Positions 7,202 to 37,914 of a stretch of DNA of 64,000 nucleotides are shown here, piece by piece. Every line of letters starts with the position of its first letter. The stretch's first letter is position 1. The position numbers were made by a program, and so were the translations under genes. A model generated the notes under the pieces. The model did not search any database and had not been told where the DNA came from. It saw only the letters and a program-made list of their open reading frames with translations. Source of the stretch: Gammaproteobacteria bacterium (GTDB lineage: Bacteria > Pseudomonadota > Gammaproteobacteria > Eutrophobiales > Eutrophobiaceae); contig CBDCTH010000012.1 of assembly GCA_965222155.1 (NCBI GenBank), positions 1,728,001 to 1,792,000 of the forward strand. The letters run 5' to 3'.

Positions 7202-8201
7202 TAGCGGCCTTGCTCTCGGCGACCAGGCACAGGATTTCAAACAGCATCTGTTTGCCGACCTGCGGTGTATTGGTCGTAGTATCGTACTGGGGGGCGACCT
7301 CAACCAGGTCGCCACCCACGAATTTCAGTCCTCGCAATCCCCTGAGAAGCTGGATTGCCTCAGCGGTAGTTATGCCGCCGATCTCCGGTGTGCCGGTGCC
7401 GGGGGCATAGACCGGATCCAGGCCGTCCACGTCGAAACTGATATAAGCAGGCCCGTCTCCCAACACTTCGCGGGTTTTCTCGATGACTGCCTCAACCCCC
7501 ATTGCATGAAAATCCTGGATGGGTATCACCGTCATGCCTGAATCATAGGAAAATTCCCAGAACACCTCGGCTGCGCCCCTGATACCGACCTGCACGCAAC
7601 GGTCCGGATCCAGTACCCCGTCCAGGACGGCGTGGCGGAACGGGCCGCCGTGATGGAATTTGTGGTCCTCCAGCGCTCCCATGGTATCGCAATGGGCGTC
7701 TATATGGATCATGCCCAACGGTTCGTCCCGGCCCACCGCCTTCATGATCGGATACGTCACGGAATGATCGCCCCCTGCCGATACCGGGATCACTCCTGCA
7801 TCCACGACCTTGTGGTAATACTGCTCTATGGTCCGTATGCCCTCATCCAGGCTGAAACCGTGCAAGGGCACGTCACCGATATCCGCGATGGTGCAGAGAT
7901 CAAAGGGGTTGACCCTGGTCTGATGGTTAAAAGGCCCTACCGCCATGGATATGTTTCTTATGGAACGCGGTCCGAAACGCGCCCCGGTCCGGTGCACCAC
8001 GCCGGCGTCGAAGGGTACGCCGATCAACGCAATATCCAGCCCTTCCGGCGTCTCTTTATAGGGAGCGTCACACAAGGTGGCGATACCGGTCAACATATCC
8101 GTAGCGCCGAGCATGGCCTTTGCATGGTCCGGGTCGTCTACCTGATGATAAGGCTGGTCCCGGTACTTGTTGCGCAGCACTGCAAGTTTTTGTTGATCCA
8201 T
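7191..8201 (-). CDS. Agmatinase/ureohydrolase family protein
   Basis: GARFGP, GGDHS, DAHCD, SFDVDGLDP...APGTGTPE, VEVAP metal-binding motifs. Confidence 0.9.
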   Translation of the reverse strand: MDQQKLAVLRNKYRDQPYHQVDDPDHAKAMLGATDMLTGIATLCDAPYKETPEGLDIALIGVPFDAGVVHRTGARFGPRSIRNISMAVGPFNHQTRVNPFDLCTIADIGDVPLHGFSLDEGIRTIEQYYHKVVDAGVIPVSAGGDHSVTYPIMKAVGRDEPLGMIHIDAHCDTMGALEDHKFHHGGPFRHAVLDGVLDPDRCVQVGIRGAAEVFWEFSYDSGMTVIPIQDFHAMGVEAVIEKTREVLGDGPAYISFDVDGLDPVYAPGTGTPEIGGITTAEAIQLLRGLRGLKFVGGDLVEVAPQYDTTTNTPQVGKQMLFEILCLVAESKAANGR

Positions 8202-8277
8202 ATCGCTCTCCTGGAAGTGTGTTAAGGAAACCCTTACTTAATCTGAGGTTCCTGTAAACCCAGTTACCCTGCTGTAA

Positions 8278-9414
8278 TCAGTGTTTCACGGTCCTGCTGC
8301 GGTTTACCCGGGCAAAAATAATAACCGCCAACACCGCCGCCGGCCACTGTATCCACGCGATTGCTTCATAACCCGTCTCCTCTATGAGAAACGCGCCGAA
8401 AACAGGACCAAGCGCGGTACTGAGAACAAATACGCCACCGGCGATGGCTGCCCAGCGGCCTTTAGCGTCGACGCCGGCTGCCAGGGTCAACATCAGCGGT
8501 ATCATTATAATGAACAACACTGCCTCAAAAAAGGCGACTATTCCCAGCATGATAACAGAGTCGGTCCAGACAGCCAGGGTAACCGACACTGCATGCAATA
8601 CCGTGGTTGCGCATAGTCCCGCCACCAGACCGAACCTGCCGGCTACCGGCGCGGCAAGCAGTCCGCCGATAATGCCGGCAATCTGAACCGCGGCAACGAT
8701 GCGGCCGGTTTCAGACGGATCGGCGCCGATCTGTACAGCCAGACGTTCCAGAAAAGCGTAATACGCCATCATGCTGATACCGATGACCATGATGCCGGCC
8801 ATAAGGATAGAACCGGCGCGGATACTGTCCACAGGTAGCGAGAGCGCGGCTGACGCACTGCCACGCTCCGGCAAGAACCAGACTAAAGGCAGGAACATCA
8901 GCAGCGTTACTGCCAGGTATCCATACAAGATATCATACGTAACCAGGTCGTTGCTCTCGGTAATCACGATGGCCATGATGGAGGTGAAAATGTAGGCTGC
9001 AGCCCAGGCCAGACCGTACAACAGGTCCGGAGCACGCGCCTGCGCAATCGCGGCATTGACCGTCGCCATCAGGCAACCGCAGCCCGCCCCTGCCAATATC
9101 CGCCATGGATACAGTTCATTGAGGTTAGCGGCCGTTGCTGCGCCTGCATGTCCCGCCAACAGCAGGATACCTCCTGCAAGTGCCAGGAGACGATACGGTA
9201 TCCTGACGCTGACGGGCGCCACCAGGATGCTGGTGATACCCATGACCAGCAGTTCGACTGTTATCAGGGCGCCTGCTTCAACTTCACCGATATTCAGTCC
9301 GATAATCAGACCGCCGACAGCCAGTGGAGACAGAATGACCGACGCGATCGCCAATACCTGGGCAGCGCAAGTACCGATAATGTGTCGAACGGGGTCGCGG
9401 GTTTGATCAGCCAA
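8278..9414 (-). CDS. MFS transporter
   Basis: About 12 hydrophobic helices in 378 aa; within the DUF1989-ureohydrolase operon. Confidence 0.75.
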   Translation of the reverse strand: MADQTRDPVRHIIGTCAAQVLAIASVILSPLAVGGLIIGLNIGEVEAGALITVELLVMGITSILVAPVSVRIPYRLLALAGGILLLAGHAGAATAANLNELYPWRILAGAGCGCLMATVNAAIAQARAPDLLYGLAWAAAYIFTSIMAIVITESNDLVTYDILYGYLAVTLLMFLPLVWFLPERGSASAALSLPVDSIRAGSILMAGIMVIGISMMAYYAFLERLAVQIGADPSETGRIVAAVQIAGIIGGLLAAPVAGRFGLVAGLCATTVLHAVSVTLAVWTDSVIMLGIVAFFEAVLFIIMIPLMLTLAAGVDAKGRWAAIAGGVFVLSTALGPVFGAFLIEETGYEAIAWIQWPAAVLAVIIFARVNRSRTVKH

Positions 9415-31273: not shown

Positions 31274-31528
31274 ATGTACCCTAGAAGCATACAACCTTTC
31301 CTTGAGGAATTACTCACGGAATTCCGTGTGCTTTACCTGACGGGACCTCGGCAGGCGGGCAAAACCACACTGGCGCGTGCCGTTGCTGTAAAACTGGGTA
31401 TGGACTACATCACCCTGGATGATCAAGCAATTTTGGCATCCGCTAAATCGGACCCACACGGGTTTATACGTTCCTTGGGCGCCAGGAAAGTAGTATTGGA
31501 TGAGTTTCAATTAGCGCCAGGTAGTTGA
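31274..31528 (+). pseudogene. Truncated AAA+ ATPase (AAA_14/DUF4143 type)
   Basis: MYPR...LTGPRQAGKTTL...YITLDD...VVLDEFQ, then stop; the family is normally about 400 aa. Confidence 0.8.
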
Positions 31529-31712
31529 AGACCGTCGCGAATACTACTAGCTGTATGTGGTAACCAATTGCGCTACCGAACCCAATCTTCAGGAACCTGT
31601 TCATGACCCGGCACGGCTACGGTGGCACGAAGTTACCAAGGTCGCCCACTATTATTTTGGCGTGGATGCCCTGAAGCAGCCCCTATAGGTGAGGGGCATA
31701 TACAACAACATC

Positions 31713-32849
31713 ATGAACCGCGTTGAACGCTATGAAAGCTTGATCAAGGCGCCTTCCCCGGCCCCGTCGCACTGGGCTGCTTCCTGTACACACCAGGAAT
31801 GCTCACTGCATCAGTTGTCGCCGTATATCGGCAAGTTAAAAAGTATTATTGCCCATGACCTCATTTTGCAATACAGCAAACCCGGTGATCTGGTAGCAGA
31901 CATGTTCTGTGGCAGCGGGACTGTACCCCTGGAGGCAGCCCGCCTTGGGCGACGCGTATTTGCTTCCGACACAAACATATATGCTGTCACGCTGACCAGA
32001 GGCAAACTTGAAGCGCCCGCTGATACCGAAACTGCGATTAAAGTTCTTAACCGCCTTCTGGAACATGCAAAAACACTACCTGTGCCGGACCTCAGGTCTG
32101 TCCCGAAATGGGTTCGTGCTTTCTTTCACCCTCAGACACTCAAAGAGGTATTCCGTCTCAGTGAATTTCTCAGCAACGAACGGCATCATTTCCTGCTGGC
32201 GTCCCTGCTTGGTATTCTGCACCATCAAAGACCTGGATTTCTGTCGTTTCCCAGCAGTCACCTCGTTCCATATCTTCGGTCAAAAAAATACCCCAGGGAT
32301 AGCTATCCTGAACTTTATCAATACCGCTCCGTTGCCGAGCGCCTGCAAGCTAAGGTAAAGCGCGCACTGAAACGCCCACCAACACGGTCATTAAATAAAT
32401 TTGTCGATGACATCAGCAGGTCCTCTGTGGAATCCGTTAACCTCCCTGACGATATCGATTGTGTTATCACAAGCCCCCCTTATATGAACGCGCTGGATTA
32501 CAGCCGTGATAATCGTTTGCGTCTCTGGTTTCTCGGTGAAACCCACCTGGAAGCACCAGATCGCGCGTTAGCGAGTCTTCATGCTTTCAGGAAATTAATC
32601 AGTTCACTGTTGAAACAATTGCAACAAAAGATGCGCTTGGGCGGTCATTGCGTCTTTGTCATAGGCGAACAGACCTTTCGGGGTGGAGGACGATTTCCAT
32701 CCGAAGAGTTAACAAGGATTTTTTTATCACCCCCTTCAACATTTCAGCTATGCGATGTTGTCAGCGACATCATCCCTGACGTTCGCCGTTCGCGGAAATA
32801 TTTTGTCGGGGTAAAACGGGAGAATATTCTTGTATTCAGGAAGTTTTGA
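31713..32849 (+). CDS. DNA amino-methyltransferase (SPPY, probable N4-cytosine)
   Basis: HQLSPYIGK, DMFCGSGT (motif I) preceding ITSPPY (motif IV). Confidence 0.85.
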   Translation: MNRVERYESLIKAPSPAPSHWAASCTHQECSLHQLSPYIGKLKSIIAHDLILQYSKPGDLVADMFCGSGTVPLEAARLGRRVFASDTNIYAVTLTRGKLEAPADTETAIKVLNRLLEHAKTLPVPDLRSVPKWVRAFFHPQTLKEVFRLSEFLSNERHHFLLASLLGILHHQRPGFLSFPSSHLVPYLRSKKYPRDSYPELYQYRSVAERLQAKVKRALKRPPTRSLNKFVDDISRSSVESVNLPDDIDCVITSPPYMNALDYSRDNRLRLWFLGETHLEAPDRALASLHAFRKLISSLLKQLQQKMRLGGHCVFVIGEQTFRGGGRFPSEELTRIFLSPPSTFQLCDVVSDIIPDVRRSRKYFVGVKRENILVFRKF

Positions 32850-32851
32850 AT

Positions 32852-35342
32852 ATGCGTAGAAATCTTCCTCCAAAAGAATTATTTCTTGGAAAAACGATTG
32901 GAAGATTTCCAAACCATGTAATTCAAGAGCATGTCAATTCAGGCAATAATGGTCATTTGTTTCTGGCCTTCGATCAATCAACAGAAAGCAAACTCGCGTT
33001 TAAAGTTGTTCCATCTGACAATCTGCCGGATGATGAAGATGAACAACAAATCTATTTAATTGAGGCAAAAAAGGCCAATATTTTACAGCACCCCTCCGTT
33101 GTCCAATACATTGATGTTTTTCCATATCATGTTCCCGATACACTGGTGAAGTGTGTGATTTTTGTATGTAATTTCGTGGATGGCATAAACCTTAGAGACT
33201 ATATAAAGAAAAACCGCTCGGAGATTACAATTGTATTTCTTGCGAACAATGTTTGAGCTATTGTATGAGCTTAAACAACGCAAAATGACCCATGGTGACC
33301 TGCATGCAGGTAACGTTCTTATCTCGAAATCTGAATATGACATCTACGATAGAATTACCTTCCGTGTAACAGACTTTGGTGTAGGTGAATTAACAGGGCT
33401 TTTAGCTCACACAAATGATTATTTATATACTTCTGATACGCTCAGGCAACTGCTGGAATGTATAGAATATCAAAATTGTGAAAGTCGGGATCGATATGCC
33501 TACGAAATTCTTCGTCATGATTTTTTGGAACGGCATCTGACTGAGACAGATCCTCTGGCTGACACATTAGCAATGCAGCCGCAGAAAATGCTGGAAAAAC
33601 TGGACTCTATAGATGGAAAGTATCTGGAGAAGACAACAGGTGAAATCGTTACAACACTAGTCACACCCTTCGACTACCCTAACTGCGAGCAAATAGGAAA
33701 TTCCCATCTTTTACTCAAGAACCTCTATTCCGACCGTTTACTTGGATTATTGGAAATTAGGGCGCGATCAAATTTAATGTTAACCGGACCTCGAGGATGT
33801 GGAAAAACTACTGTTTTCCGTGCACTGAGCCTCGAATATTTGATCTCGACTGAAGATGATCAGCCAAACCGTATCAACTATATCGGCATCTATTATAGAT
33901 GCGACGATCTCTATTTCTCTTTTCCAAGATATAAGACTCCTGGACGATTTGAAGCACTGGACGTCCCCATGCATTTCTTGATCGTGACGTTGCTGGCAAC
34001 TGTACTGGAACAGATTGGCACCTGGGCAAAAAAGCATTTTCCGGATGAATTCAAAAAGAAAGAAGAAGCACTTGTTCTGGAACTTTGGAATTTATTTGAA
34101 TGGCCGTCTCTGAATAATCCAAATGCCAGGCAACTGGCTACGCTAATAAATAAATTAAAAACCAAGGAAAGAAAACGCGCTGCAAAAAAGCAAAATTTTG
34201 TTCATGTACAGACTGAACCTGTCAAAGGCTATTTTGGCCCTGGGGTTATGTTTGATGCTTGTCGTCTTATACGCGACAAGTTTTCTTTCCTTAACGACCG
34301 TCCTTTCTATTTCTTTATTGATGATTATTCTCACCCGAAAATTACTAAGGAGTTACAAGCAAACCTGAACCGATTGCTCATGCACCGCAGCTCGGATGTT
34401 TTTTTCAAACTCTCAACAGAGAGCCCTGTCTCTTTTGTACGCGAGGATGTGGACGGTAAACAGTTTGTAGAATCTCGTGAGCTTGATTTAGTAAATCTCG
34501 GACTGAGATACATCAAAGATGACAAAAATCAAGCGATTGAATTTCTTGATGACCTATTCAGCCGTCGCTTCCAAAGGGTTGATGGATATCCTGTACAAAC
34601 TCTTGAACAACTACTGGGATCAATACCACGCAATGAAAACGCCACGGCCCGTGCTTTTCGAGAGAAACAAGGGCGTCAAAACTATGCTGGCAGAGAAACT
34701 ATAGCCGCAATGTGCAGCGGCGATATTCACTATATTATTCGTCTTGTCGCGAGGATGGTGGATGATTATGGGGGGCCAGACGCTCTGGCAAACTCCCAAA
34801 CACCTTGCATACCTCCTCAACAACAACATGATTCTATCCGCGCTGCTGCAGGTTCGTTTATGGAGTCTGTACGCACTTTACCTCGTTGGGGGAAACAACT
34901 TGCAGAGGCAACGGCAACATTCGGTAGTGTTGCGCATTCTTATCTCATGTACGAAACATCAACCAACGAAGCTAATGAGCCTCCTCACCAAGCTTCCCGG
35001 ATTGAACCATACGAGACATTAAATTTATCCGAGGAAGCACAAGAAATACTTGATGAACTATTACGCTACTCAATTCTCATTGAAGATCCCCGGGGGAAAA
35101 GTCGGAGAGGAAAGGTTGTGCCAAGATTTTTTCTCAGGCGTTATTTAATCCCCCACTTCCACCTGACATTCAGCCGTAGAGACTCCCTCGAATTGGAAAA
35201 TGACCAGATCGAAACCTTATTGTGTAAGCCGCAGACATTCGAGGAACAGATGAGATTAAAATCTTTAGAAGATGCAGCGCGCCGGCGCCGAAGAGATCCA
35301 GATCAACTGCAACTCCTCGAAGAGGAGGGTCCGCGTGTTTGA
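32852..35342 (+). pseudogene. Ser/Thr protein kinase-P-loop ATPase fusion, split by a frameshift near 33235
   Basis: ORF1: SGNNG Gly loop, AFKVV, EAKK, HPSVV. ORF2: HGDLHAGNV, TDFG, then GPRGCGKTT and FFIDD. Confidence 0.8.
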
Positions 35343-36429
35343 TAAAAATATCCTAAGGACAGATGAACGATTAAGCAAGGTAGCCTGGCCTGCTTTGCAA
35401 ACAATCGATGTTCCCATAGTAGGATCTGGTGACTGTTTGTTGATATGTGCGGGATTTGAAGATCGATCTATCGAAACACTACGCCGAATACTGGATGCTA
35501 GAAAATCCGGCTTCGTTCTTGGATTAGTAAGTTATTTACCCAAGCAACCCGAGAATAGGCAAGAAGAATTACACACAATCATCCAGAATGCTGATCTTCA
35601 AGTAAGAAGATTTGTTTATGACCGTGAAAATCCAGCAGGTATAGGGAAGGAGCTAAAAAGCTTTACAGAGGGATTCGACCGCGTTTTTATTGATATTTCC
35701 GGCATGTCACGCCTGCTTATCGTTCAGTTACTGGTTGCCCTGTTGACTCGTGACAATGATTCAGTAACGCTAATCTATGGCGAGGCCGATGTATATCCAC
35801 CATCTGAAGATAAATTCGAACAAGATTACAGAGAGAATAATTCCAATCCGATCCCAGGTTACCTGTCGTCTGGAATTTTTGAAATAGCAACAACTCCTGA
35901 ATTGAGTTCTGTATCTATGTTAGGTGAAGCCCTCAGGCTGATAGCATTTCCGTCCTTTGATCCTGCACAGCTCACGAATTTGCTCCATGAATTACAACCT
36001 GCTTACACAGAATTTATTCATGGCGCACCACCAGCCCGAAAGAACAAGTGGAGAACGGAGGCAATCCGCAAACTTAACCGATCTACACTGGATGAACTTC
36101 GGGGGAAAAGGGACCATGAGACCTCCACGCTTGACTATAGGGAGACACTACATAAGTTGCTTAAGATATATGCAGAACGCAGTATGTTTGATCGCCTTGT
36201 AGTTGCTCCGACCGGTAGTAAGATGCAAGCAGTAGCTGTGGGTTTATTCCGCGCGGCGTTGTATGACGTTCAAATCGTTTATCCAACTCCACAGGTTTTT
36301 ACGACACCGAAAGAACATACTTTAGGGCTGCGTCAACTGTATCAACTAGATATACCTGCCGAAGCTTTTATTAATGTCATCGGGAACTCCAGGGACGATT
36401 TCAGCGATACGCTCGAAACACATCCATGA
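35335..36429 (+). CDS. Uncharacterised protein with two CARF-like Rossmann repeats
   Basis: GTG start after GAGGAGG, overlapping the upstream stop; CAGFEDRS...IDISGMSR...LIY and FPSFDP...APTGSK...IVYP. Confidence 0.6.
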   Translation: MFDKNILRTDERLSKVAWPALQTIDVPIVGSGDCLLICAGFEDRSIETLRRILDARKSGFVLGLVSYLPKQPENRQEELHTIIQNADLQVRRFVYDRENPAGIGKELKSFTEGFDRVFIDISGMSRLLIVQLLVALLTRDNDSVTLIYGEADVYPPSEDKFEQDYRENNSNPIPGYLSSGIFEIATTPELSSVSMLGEALRLIAFPSFDPAQLTNLLHELQPAYTEFIHGAPPARKNKWRTEAIRKLNRSTLDELRGKRDHETSTLDYRETLHKLLKIYAERSMFDRLVVAPTGSKMQAVAVGLFRAALYDVQIVYPTPQVFTTPKEHTLGLRQLYQLDIPAEAFINVIGNSRDDFSDTLETHP

Positions 36430-36580
36430 TTCCAAAGGAGTGTAAACGTCTGGCGGAGGTGGATTTTCCAATCATTTTGGTATCCAGATACACAGGCCAT
36501 TAGAAATCTATCCGGCATGGGCATCCTTCTACGCTTTAACACCCTTCAAAAACTCGTATGAACCTATGAAAAAATTGAAG

Positions 36581-37871
36581 GGAACCTCTAATAATTGACG
36601 ATTTCCGTTACTATCGCTATCTATGCGGGCAAGCCGGGTTCTTTTACATATAAATGTATTCGGCCAGTGGCGAAATGACCCCGTGCTCGCCTTCATCGAC
36701 CCCTTAATCGGGCCGTTTTATTGCCTTCGGGTGTCGGTTTGACACCAGCCGGGCGTTGTCTCCGTCAAGCAGGCGCGCTGACCCCTTCCAGGTAACACAG
36801 TCGTCGCATGTTATACCCCAGGTTCAGCATCCCTATGGCCAACTCACTGCGCGCCAGCCCGATACAGCGTATCAGCTTGGCCCGGGTCGCACACTGCGCC
36901 CCGAACACGTGCTCCACCCGCACCCGCACCTTGGCCCGCGTGCGGTTGCCCTGCTGCGCCCACGCCGTCAACGGCTTGTTGCGGCGCCCCTTGCGCTGAA
37001 TGTGGCTGCGGTAGCGCTGGGCCTGCAAGCGTTCCTCCTGCTCCCTGGAACGGTAGGCGCGGTCCGCCCATATCGCCTTGCTGCTGTTGTGCTCATCCAA
37101 CAACTCATCGAACAACTGCGAGTCATGCACGTTGGCCGGCGTCACCGCATACTTGCGTACCAGCTTGTGTTTGTTATCGACATTCACGTGGTTCTTGTAC
37201 CCGTAATGACTCCTGCCCCGCTGCTTCGTCCAACGAGCCTCCACGTCCTTCTGCCGCCGCTTGGATTTGGCTGCCTCATCGTCCCAGCCCGCAGGCGCCT
37301 CCCCCGCCTTAAGCGCCGCATTCTCCTCGCGCGTGTTGCGCTGCACCGGCACCAAGGAAGCATCCACCCACTGCCCCGTGCGCGCCCGATACCCCAAGTC
37401 TGCTAACTGCTCGGCAAACCGTGCAAACAGTTCCTCCGTCAATTTCAGCTCCACCAACTTCTCACGAAACGCCCAAAAGGTCTTCGCAGCCGGTGCCCGA
37501 CGCACATTATCCAACCCCATAAACCGCTGAAAACTGCGCCGGTACTCAAGCTGATATTCCAACTGCTCATCACTCAACCCGTACAAATGCTGTAACACCA
37601 ACCCCTTGAACAGCAGCACCTCATCCCGACGCGGGGCGCCCGCATTGCGCTTGCGGGTCGTGGGTCGAATACGCACCAATAGCGGACGAAACGCCTCCCA
37701 GTCCACTACCTCACCCAACCGCACCAGGGGATCCTTCAGTTTATTCAAGCGGGTGTCTTGCAAGTCAAACAACGAACCGAATATGTCTTGTGTCTTCATG
37801 AAACCACCTTGAGGAAAAAGTTGAAATAAGTCACCGCTATTATATCATTCGATTGAATAAATAGAGGTTCC
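36581..37871 (-). mobile_element. Complete IS5-family insertion sequence (1291 bp)
   Basis: GGAACCTCTA terminal inverted repeats; TTGAAG direct repeat at 36575-36580 and 37872-37877. Confidence 0.9.
36765..37799 (-). CDS. IS5 family DDE transposase
   Basis: VDWEAFRP, YGLSDEQLE, VDAS, HYGYKNH, NVHDS, ADRAY, RVRVEHVF. Confidence 0.93.
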   Translation of the reverse strand: MKTQDIFGSLFDLQDTRLNKLKDPLVRLGEVVDWEAFRPLLVRIRPTTRKRNAGAPRRDEVLLFKGLVLQHLYGLSDEQLEYQLEYRRSFQRFMGLDNVRRAPAAKTFWAFREKLVELKLTEELFARFAEQLADLGYRARTGQWVDASLVPVQRNTREENAALKAGEAPAGWDDEAAKSKRRQKDVEARWTKQRGRSHYGYKNHVNVDNKHKLVRKYAVTPANVHDSQLFDELLDEHNSSKAIWADRAYRSREQEERLQAQRYRSHIQRKGRRNKPLTAWAQQGNRTRAKVRVRVEHVFGAQCATRAKLIRCIGLARSELAIGMLNLGYNMRRLCYLEGVSAPA

Positions 37872-37914
37872 TTGAAGTTGGTAACATACATTCTGTAGTT
37901 ACTATGATAACGCT

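Follow-up and report, generated by a model that had tools for sequence, protein, structure and literature searches.

What might a protein made of two CARF domains and no effector domain be doing at the end of a gene cassette that also encodes a DNA methyltransferase and a kinase-ATPase? The question is raised by a gene in a 64,000-nucleotide (nt) stretch of a gammaproteobacterial genome (assembly GCA_965222155.1, contig CBDCTH010000012.1, positions 1,728,001 to 1,792,000), hereafter referred to as the window, in whose numbering positions are given. On balance, this single-chain double-CARF pseudo-dimer is probably the detached ligand-sensing subunit of the neighbouring NLR-like kinase-ATPase, and the methylation-linked cassette to which both belong is, judging from the genes found around it, probably defensive. 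The gene and its parts, with lengths in amino acids (aa), are as follows.

35335–36429, + strand: double (tandem) CARF gene, 364 aa, recognised from the open reading frame (ORF) call, start context, PADLOC CARF6 match, predicted model and structural matches.
35422–35799, + strand: predicted N-terminal CARF domain, ~residues 30–155, from the secondary structure of the model, CARF6 profile positions 15–139, and alignments with Card1 and Csa3.
35926–36300, + strand: predicted C-terminal CARF domain, ~residues 198–322, with PSFD after strand 1' and PTGSKMQ after strand 4'.
36334–36393, + strand: C-terminal strand (residues 334–340) and helix (residues 342–353), from the model.

The ORF on which the original prediction was based, a reading of the DNA made without database searches, is present on the + strand, with a GTG start at 35335 that overlaps the upstream stop by 8 nt. 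An alternative ATG start at 35272 would give a protein of 385 aa; as the ribosome-binding site AAGAGGAGGG is located 5 nt ahead of the GTG, a protein of 364 aa is probably what is made.

Assignment of this protein to a family comes from PADLOC-DB, in which 11 models labelled CARF6 match it, the label ‘CARF6--CARF_CARF_CARF’ among them. The best of these, PDLC01917, matches at E 2.8e-15 and aligns residues 33–320 with profile positions 16–283 of 308, the significant and near full-length match that marks the CARF6 clade, and the protein also matches the C-terminal positions 891–1176 of the 1187-position model ‘CARF6--CARF_STK_AAA’. The CARF6 names presumably derive from the 2020 classification of CARF proteins by Makarova et al. 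No Pfam or NCBIfam family matches at E values up to 0.1, Csa3, Csx1, Csm6, and the ring nucleases included, nor is there a match to Pfam SAVED; a profile of 42 relatives matches no PDB sequence at E values up to 10, and a protein atlas search returns only the protein’s own unnamed family. Relatives number 942 at E 1e-3 or better in a collection clustered at 90% identity, with the best 120 being 57–99% identical and all named members among them termed ‘hypothetical’, and the family forms 549 clusters at 50% identity that are spread over many phyla. The family is already catalogued under the CARF6 label and is not new, whilst full-text literature searches returned no experimental study of the methylase/kinase-ATPase/double-CARF cassette.

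In the AlphaFold2 model of the protein (predicted local distance difference test (pLDDT) 81.2, predicted template modelling score (pTM) 0.86), two beta-alpha-beta domains whose elements come in the same order lie on either side of a disordered linker (residues 178–195), with a single strand and helix after the second domain, and each half of the protein matches its own separate half of the CARF6 profiles. All six motifs quoted in the original prediction (GFEDRS, DISGMSR, LIY, SFDP, PTGSK, and IVY) are present in the domains to which they had been assigned. GFEDR (residues 40–44, nt 35452–35466) and DISGMSR (residues 120–126, nt 35692–35712) follow strands 1 and 4 of the N-terminal domain respectively, SFDP (residues 207–210) and PTGSK (residues 292–296, within PTGSKMQ, residues 292–298, nt 36208–36228) lie in the C-terminal domain, and LIY and IVY close the fifth strands of their respective halves. 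Comparison of the two halves by BLASTP gives a best E of 0.4, and by hhalign an E of 0.13 with 42 close relatives and of 0.036 with 61 diverse relatives, the latter over 123 collinear columns in which the same motifs are paired. As these values are weak, and as one of 30 column-shuffled controls outscored the real alignment of the 61 relatives, chance could account for the repeat as seen in sequence alone. The two similar halves that had been proposed are therefore clear in the predicted fold and its separate profile matches, but weak in sequence.

The structural similarity of the model extends to solved CARF domains, with a predicted six-stranded Rossmann-like core that resembles theirs. The best structural matches are sensors of cyclic tetra-adenylate (cA4) or cyclic hexa-adenylate (cA6), with Can1 of Thermus thermophilus (PDB 6sce) scoring highest at 14.7 despite a sequence identity of 10%, and Csa3, Can2, and Csm6 scoring 11–12; ring nucleases score well below these sensor CARFs, and SAVED proteins score under the true CARF proteins. 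Together with the CARF6 profile match, the Can1 match bears out the CARF-like fold and the layout of an intramolecular CARF pair that lacks an effector domain, both of which had been put forward from the sequence. The N-terminal half alone gives marginal PADLOC matches to Csa3, CasR, and CARF3 (E 0.01–0.02). Single-domain CARF structures align with only ~130 residues, yet these are spread over model residues 30 to 341, and for this reason the C-terminal strand probably packs back onto the N-terminal domain. Toprim, in which a Glu after strand 1 is combined with an acidic motif after a later strand, was tried as an assignment for the N-terminal domain and dropped, with the second motif being D-I-S rather than DxD, and no Toprim protein found among the listed structural matches.

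The 2014 description of the CARF superfamily by Makarova et al. (PMC4012209) defines it by a Rossmann-like six-stranded core, a basic residue after strand 4, and a Ser/Thr at the end of strand 1, and locates the signature [DN]x[ST]xxx[RK] that follows strand 4 in the ligand pocket. Residues D120-I-S122-G-M-S-R126 of the N-terminal domain fit this signature, in agreement with the CARF-type loop that had been suggested there, with residue 126 being Lys in most relatives. Across 61 relatives, down to 25% identity, Gly40, Glu42, Asp120, Pro156, Trp239, and Lys296 are invariant, and Phe41, Arg44, Ser122, Met124, Ser125, Pro292, Gly294, Ser295, and Gln298 nearly so. The conserved blocks 40–44, 120–126, and 292–298 correspond, in the secondary structure of the model, to loops that follow strands 1 and 4.

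The genes with which the double CARF is associated in the window are given below.

31689–32849, + strand: amino-type DNA methyltransferase (FxGxG, then SPPY), the first gene of the cassette; N6_N4_Mtase E 3e-12, MTase_II PDLC03325 E 5.7e-22.
32846–35342, + strand: Ser/Thr kinase fused to an ORC/Cdc6-STAND-like ATPase; Pkinase, ORC-CDC6-like PF24389 E 1.3e-51, PDLC01925.

The double CARF is the last of the three genes, and the methyltransferase and kinase genes overlap by 4 nt, compared with the 8 nt shared by the ATPase and CARF genes. This arrangement recurs in 79 related loci from many phyla (referred to by L numbers), which were retrieved by means of two motifs from the close subfamily; counts over them therefore describe that subfamily only. 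The ATPase part lies directly upstream of the double CARF in all 68 loci with at least 2200 nt of flanking sequence, and 61 of the 64 loci with 3750 nt or more contain the complete set of methylase, kinase part, and ATPase part, with L010, L069, and L077 being incomplete. In 61 loci the kinase-ATPase is a single ORF of 811–915 aa, 57 of these having no internal stop, with a spacing of −16 to +35 nt to the CARF gene. The identities of the three genes to those of the window co-vary, with a Pearson coefficient of 0.96 for every pair (58 loci), and conservation does not extend to a fourth gene, the best cluster of flanking genes being found in 8 of 79 loci. Distribution amongst close relatives is patchy, with the family profile matching five of 101 related genomes (its own included) and one of 22 other genomes of the same genus. 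No phage record encodes a relative of the double CARF, whilst one plasmid record does. A cultured, non-pathogenic carrier is Bradyrhizobium quebecense, a plasmid of which encodes a methylase, a split kinase and ATPase, a double CARF (31% identity), and thyX, with the kinase, ATPase, and CARF genes all annotated as hypothetical.

The thymidylate synthase gene thyX adjoins the cassette in six of the 79 loci (L052:826-2256 and five others), and in L052 its product has an N-terminal extension of ~200 aa. On the Bradyrhizobium plasmid (L092) thyX occupies positions 8109–9032.

An alignment of 40 kinase-ATPases shows no variation in the kinase motifs HxD..N and DFG or in the ATPase motifs TGPRGCGKT (Walker A) and DDYS (Walker B), and the partner kinase and ATPase look active by these motifs. 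In the window itself the kinase-ATPase is divided into two ORFs, 32846–33256 (136 aa) and 33231–35342 (703 aa), by the absence at ~33236 (in the region 33231–33256) of 11 bases that are found in the closest relative, L001. Contigs from four of four public runs, representing four studies, carry 11 extra bases at exactly this point, with one of the runs being otherwise identical across the stretch at a depth of ~140. One metatranscriptome run contained a small share (0.07) of the sampled sequence words. Decay of the kinase gene, the first reading of this frameshift, was rejected because of these contigs, and the break probably reflects a misassembly or a rare variant carried by the genome of the window, not a population-wide decay of the gene. 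The model of the 703-aa ORF (pLDDT 87.9) yields Foldseek matches to archaeal ORC2/Cdc6, CED-4, plant NLR resistosomes, RdrA, and BrxC (E 7e-5 to 1e-3). Prediction of a complex between ATPase residues 160–703 and the double CARF gave scores of 0.29 and 0.22 (mark 0.32), which speak neither for nor against binding. The methyltransferase gives weak PDB matches to N4-cytosine and MboIIA methyltransferases.

The proposed relationship between sensor and ATPase is also reflected in natural fusions. In a genome of the same genus (G057), the kinase-ATPase and a C-terminal double CARF form a single protein of 1247 aa, which matches PDLC01925 end to end (E 0) and contains Pkinase at residues 50–229 and ORC-CDC6-like at residues 310–733. 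Residues 941–1239 of this protein align with the whole double-CARF profile (probability 97.9, E 3.4e-13) and retain the motifs GFE, DISG.SK, and TGSK. In the window, the kinase-ATPase matches positions 331–816 of the same fused model, with the double CARF protein matching the consecutive C-terminal part noted above; the one-polypeptide architecture of ‘CARF_STK_AAA’ is not found here, as the CARF is encoded by an ORF of its own, preceded by a ribosome-binding site, and, given the fused form in the same genus, the window holds the split, operonic form. The original prediction of a protein with no effector domain therefore holds for the protein itself, but the candidate effector lies next door in the form of the upstream kinase-ATPase. 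The G057 fusion came from a genome search; a word-index search for longer fused relatives returned none, which is weak evidence by itself. Furthermore, in two of the five oddly sized relatives that were scanned (of 150 listed), the double CARF precedes a calcineurin-like phosphoesterase (P0209) or a histidine kinase (P0263). Fusions such as these are what would be expected of a sensor module.

At the locus of the fused gene (L091; G057:C10, 7448–12404, minus strand), an ORF of 406 aa lies upstream of the gene, in translational coupling with it, and takes the place of the methylase; it bears no likeness to the methylase of the window, and neither Pfam nor PADLOC assigns it to a family. Further upstream are genes for a Response_reg_2 protein and a C5 cytosine methylase.

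If the double CARF is a sensor, what could supply its signal? The original prediction noted that no Cas10 or CD-NTase lies nearby, which is correct locally, and no SMODS CD-NTase is found in the genome as a whole (completeness 100%, contamination 7.3%); genome-wide, however, the statement fails for Cas10, with a Cmr2-type gene (G000:C12:560210-562132, E 2.6e-73) and a Csm1-type gene (568700–571339, E 2.3e-209) located within ~11 kb of each other on the same contig as the cassette, ~1.19 Mb away from it. As Cmr2- and Csm1-type genes occur within ~11 kb, the organism has type III CRISPR-Cas loci, whilst the cassette lies neither in nor beside a cas10 locus, the position that would mark a type III CRISPR ancillary gene. 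None of the 55 immediate same-strand neighbouring ORFs scanned in the related loci (26 upstream, with 57 loci eligible, and 29 downstream, with 66) is a cas gene. Of the 50 genomes that carry the first 50 of these 79 loci, 21 have a Cas10-palm match at E 1e-3 or better (18 of these over the cut-off), a figure that is an upper estimate because the Cas10 model also matched in the E. coli control. The remaining 29 have no such match, including the chromosome-level assemblies behind L002, L005, L007, L008, and L011. A SMODS match is found in 15 of the 50 genomes and in none of the other 35. Neither match is found in 20 of the 50, the chromosome-level assemblies behind L005, L011, and L019 among them and many of the others being incomplete metagenome-assembled genomes, and on this basis the cassette is independent of both known signal sources.

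Among the same neighbours, defence components recognised by PADLOC (E 1e-10 or better) occur in 19 of the 79 loci, as listed below.

Type III restriction-modification (RM) parts: 8 loci (L002, L003, L004, L005, L012, L033, L056, and L074).
Hma: 4 loci.
mad2-like methylase: 2 loci.
Type I RM: 2 loci.
PglW: 1 locus.
pAgo-like: 1 locus.
ZorD/DpdE-like helicase: 1 locus.

In L002 and L003 the cassette is flanked by mod upstream and res downstream, all on the same strand and separated by 27–172 nt, and it looks as if the cassette plugs into type III RM systems. In L001, which shares 82% DNA identity and syntenic flanks with the window, the cassette lies between hmaA and hmaB-hmaC, all on one strand. 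The methylase/kinase-ATPase/double-CARF cassette is widespread, already catalogued, and often lodged inside restriction-type defence operons. The G+C content of the cassette in the window is 0.43 (positions 32001–36000), compared with 0.52–0.54 in both flanks, which is consistent with horizontal acquisition.

In one locus (L026:11342-15613), a full-length PglW, the BREX type 2 kinase (PADLOC E 0), is encoded on the same strand 304 nt downstream of the cassette.

For the double CARF as sensory subunit of the kinase-ATPase, the following mechanism is proposed. The cleft between the CARF domains, lined by the invariant loops that follow strands 1 and 4, would bind a small nucleotide-like signal that arises during infection or DNA damage, and the ligand-bound sensor would then engage the ORC/Cdc6-STAND-like ATPase, which may switch or oligomerise in the manner of NLR/STAND proteins. 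This would activate the N-terminal Ser/Thr kinase, which would phosphorylate host or phage proteins and so stop phage growth, whilst the methyltransferase may mark self DNA or link the module to a surrounding methylation-based system such as Hma or type III RM. The ligand is not necessarily a product of Cas10 or a CD-NTase. More tentatively, the double CARF might read a signal of no known cyclase, with its binding triggering assembly of the NLR-like kinase-ATPase in a CARF pathway independent of CRISPR and of the cyclic-oligonucleotide-based antiphage signalling system (CBASS). Candidates for such a signal would be a by-product of restriction or Hma (cyclic-phosphate-ended DNA or RNA fragments, or a nucleotide derived from S-adenosylmethionine or S-adenosylhomocysteine) or a nucleotide made by the phage. 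Were this so, the cassette would be a plug-in second line of defence, by which failing or overwhelmed restriction would lead to a phosphorylation-based shutdown.

Several observations weigh against a ligand-sensing, defensive role. The fold is that of a prediction, and the pocket has some unusual features: the motif of the C-terminal domain, A-P-T293-G-S-K296, departs from the canonical signature, though Lys296 is invariant; strand 1 of the N-terminal domain runs into A-G-F-E-D-R-S, in which Ser45 is the first residue of the Ser/Thr type that CARF proteins usually have where this strand ends, with strand 1' of the C-terminal domain being followed by F-P-S207-F-D; and the invariant Glu42 of the strand 1 loop would be unexpected in a site for a polyanionic ligand. 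The cassette contains no signal-making enzyme, and 20 of the 50 genomes have neither a Cas10-like nor a SMODS match. Additionally, 60 of the 79 loci have no recognised defence gene as an immediate same-strand neighbour, a role in defence being suggested by context, and full-text literature searches returned no binding, enzymatic, or phage assay for any member of the family.

Some of these observations would also be explained if the double CARF bound no ligand and served instead as an adaptor or scaffold of the kinase-ATPase, or as a substrate or regulatory target of the kinase through its Ser/Thr-rich loops. Such a role accords with the lack of a signal-making enzyme in the cassette and of both cyclase matches in 20 of the 50 genomes, with conservation that spans the whole protein rather than the pocket loops alone, as for a subunit of a tight complex, and with the Ser/Thr-rich character of the invariant loops DISGMSR and PTGSK. 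It nevertheless seems unlikely, since the residues invariant down to 25% identity are those of the canonical CARF ligand loops, and since the module is also fused to the unrelated phosphoesterase and histidine kinase outputs, as is typical of sensors. We consider it quite improbable that the protein senses a cyclic oligoadenylate of the genome’s own type III CRISPR-Cas, which would make the cassette a remote CRISPR ancillary effector: whilst both Cas10 genes are on the same contig, the best structural matches are cA4/cA6 sensors, and up to 21 of the 50 genomes have a Cas10-palm match, the Cas10 genes lie ~1.19 Mb from the cassette, 29 of the genomes, chromosome-level assemblies among them, have no such match, and none of the 55 neighbours is a cas gene.

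A role as ring nuclease or phosphodiesterase, in which the protein would break down a cyclic nucleotide signal and so tune or end signalling instead of sensing it, is highly improbable, given that ring nuclease structures score so far below sensor CARFs, that no substrate would be expected in the 20 genomes without either known cyclase class, and that strict coupling and fusion to the kinase-ATPase better fit a sensor. Nor is a non-immune role at all likely for the cassette as a whole, whether as an epigenetic or regulatory module or as one of selfish addiction, with a metabolic nucleotide then being read by the double CARF. The cassette does lack a nuclease or other recognisable killing effector, and most loci lack a recognised defence gene next to it; against this stand its repeated insertion between mod and res of type III RM systems and between hmaA and hmaB, its patchy spread among relatives, its low G+C content, and an adjoining insertion sequence (IS) element and gene remnants (described below), all of them features typical of defence islands.

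The sensor reading is also informed by comparison with known systems. Proteins in which a Zn ribbon, a Ser/Thr/Tyr kinase, an AAA+ ATPase with an Arg in the P-loop, a CARF domain, and a winged helix-turn-helix domain are fused were described in 2014, as was a fusion of two CARF domains, and CARF was then proposed to act in kinase-mediated signalling (PMC4012209). The window shares with that fused family a kinase and an ATPase with a Walker A arginine (TGPRGCGKT), followed by CARF, but differs in that its CARF is double and stand-alone, and in that Pfam detects no Zn ribbon; where the 2014 text speaks of a ‘small family’ (PMC4012209), 549 clusters at 50% identity and 79 loci are found here. The PADLOC model ‘CARF6--CARF_STK_AAA’ likewise has its sensor in the same chain, whereas that of the window is encoded by a separate gene. 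Can1 is a monomeric, cA4-activated, CRISPR-associated nuclease in which two CARF domains are accompanied by nuclease and nuclease-like domains, whereas the protein of the window has neither an effector domain nor a CRISPR link. From the SAVED proteins (Cap4, Cap5, CalpL, and TIR-SAVED) it differs in having no Pfam SAVED match and no CD-NTase partner. The order effector, NTPase, sensor of STAND/NLR-like ATPases (Avs type, CED-4, and plant resistosomes) is mirrored by the fused relative, with its kinase, ORC/Cdc6-STAND-like ATPase, and double CARF. Known Avs sensors recognise phage proteins via repeat domains, whereas a CARF sensor would read a small molecule.

A methylase, a Ser/Thr kinase, and ATPases are also combined in BREX type 2/Pgl (PglW and PglX) and in MADS (mad2 methylase, mad6 kinase, and mad8 ATPase), with domain-level PADLOC matches in the cassette to mad6 (E 9.7e-12), mad8 (E 2.7e-5), and mad2 (E 3.9e-7). 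MADS has eight genes (PMC13662399), compared with three in the cassette of the window. Membership of MADS or BREX type 2 was rejected, as the full gene set is absent and the matches are domain-level only; Pfam and PADLOC scans of five proteins of the cassette region found no PglZ, BrxC, or OLD-like MAD3/MAD4 nuclease.

To our knowledge, CARF and SAVED sensors are understood almost solely as receivers of Cas10 or CD-NTase products. The identity of the ligand would reveal what CARF domains sense outside CRISPR and CBASS, and would define a defence route that acts by phosphorylation instead of by a nuclease. The family is large, tightly tied to the kinase-ATPase and methylase, and often found in genomes without either type of cyclase, and its presence on a Bradyrhizobium quebecense plasmid makes the sensor question testable at the bench. 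For the window itself the meaning is modest, as it holds one more copy of a computationally catalogued cassette.

The immediate surroundings of the cassette in the window comprise the following.

31274–31528: AAA_14/PADLOC PDC-S01-type ATPase fragment, 84 aa, matching a 422-position model at E 5e-27 and immediately preceding the methylase gene.
36426–36536, + strand: hmaB remnant, first 37 codons (DUF1156/HmaB-type methylase), tblastn against L001, 78% identity, E 1.7e-12.
36765–37799, − strand: IS5-like transposase ORF, the family name coming from a reading of the translation.

The full-length L001 counterpart of the hmaB remnant matches HmaB at E 4.6e-108. Synteny breakpoints against L001 place the inserted element at ~36533–37885, where L001 has hmaB, a 320-aa ORF, and hmaC, and hmaA is missing upstream of the cassette in the window, unlike in L001. 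With hmaB cut off by the IS5-like element and hmaA absent, the Hma system around the cassette has been lost in the window. The place of hmaA in L001 is occupied here by the 84-aa AAA_14 gene remnant.

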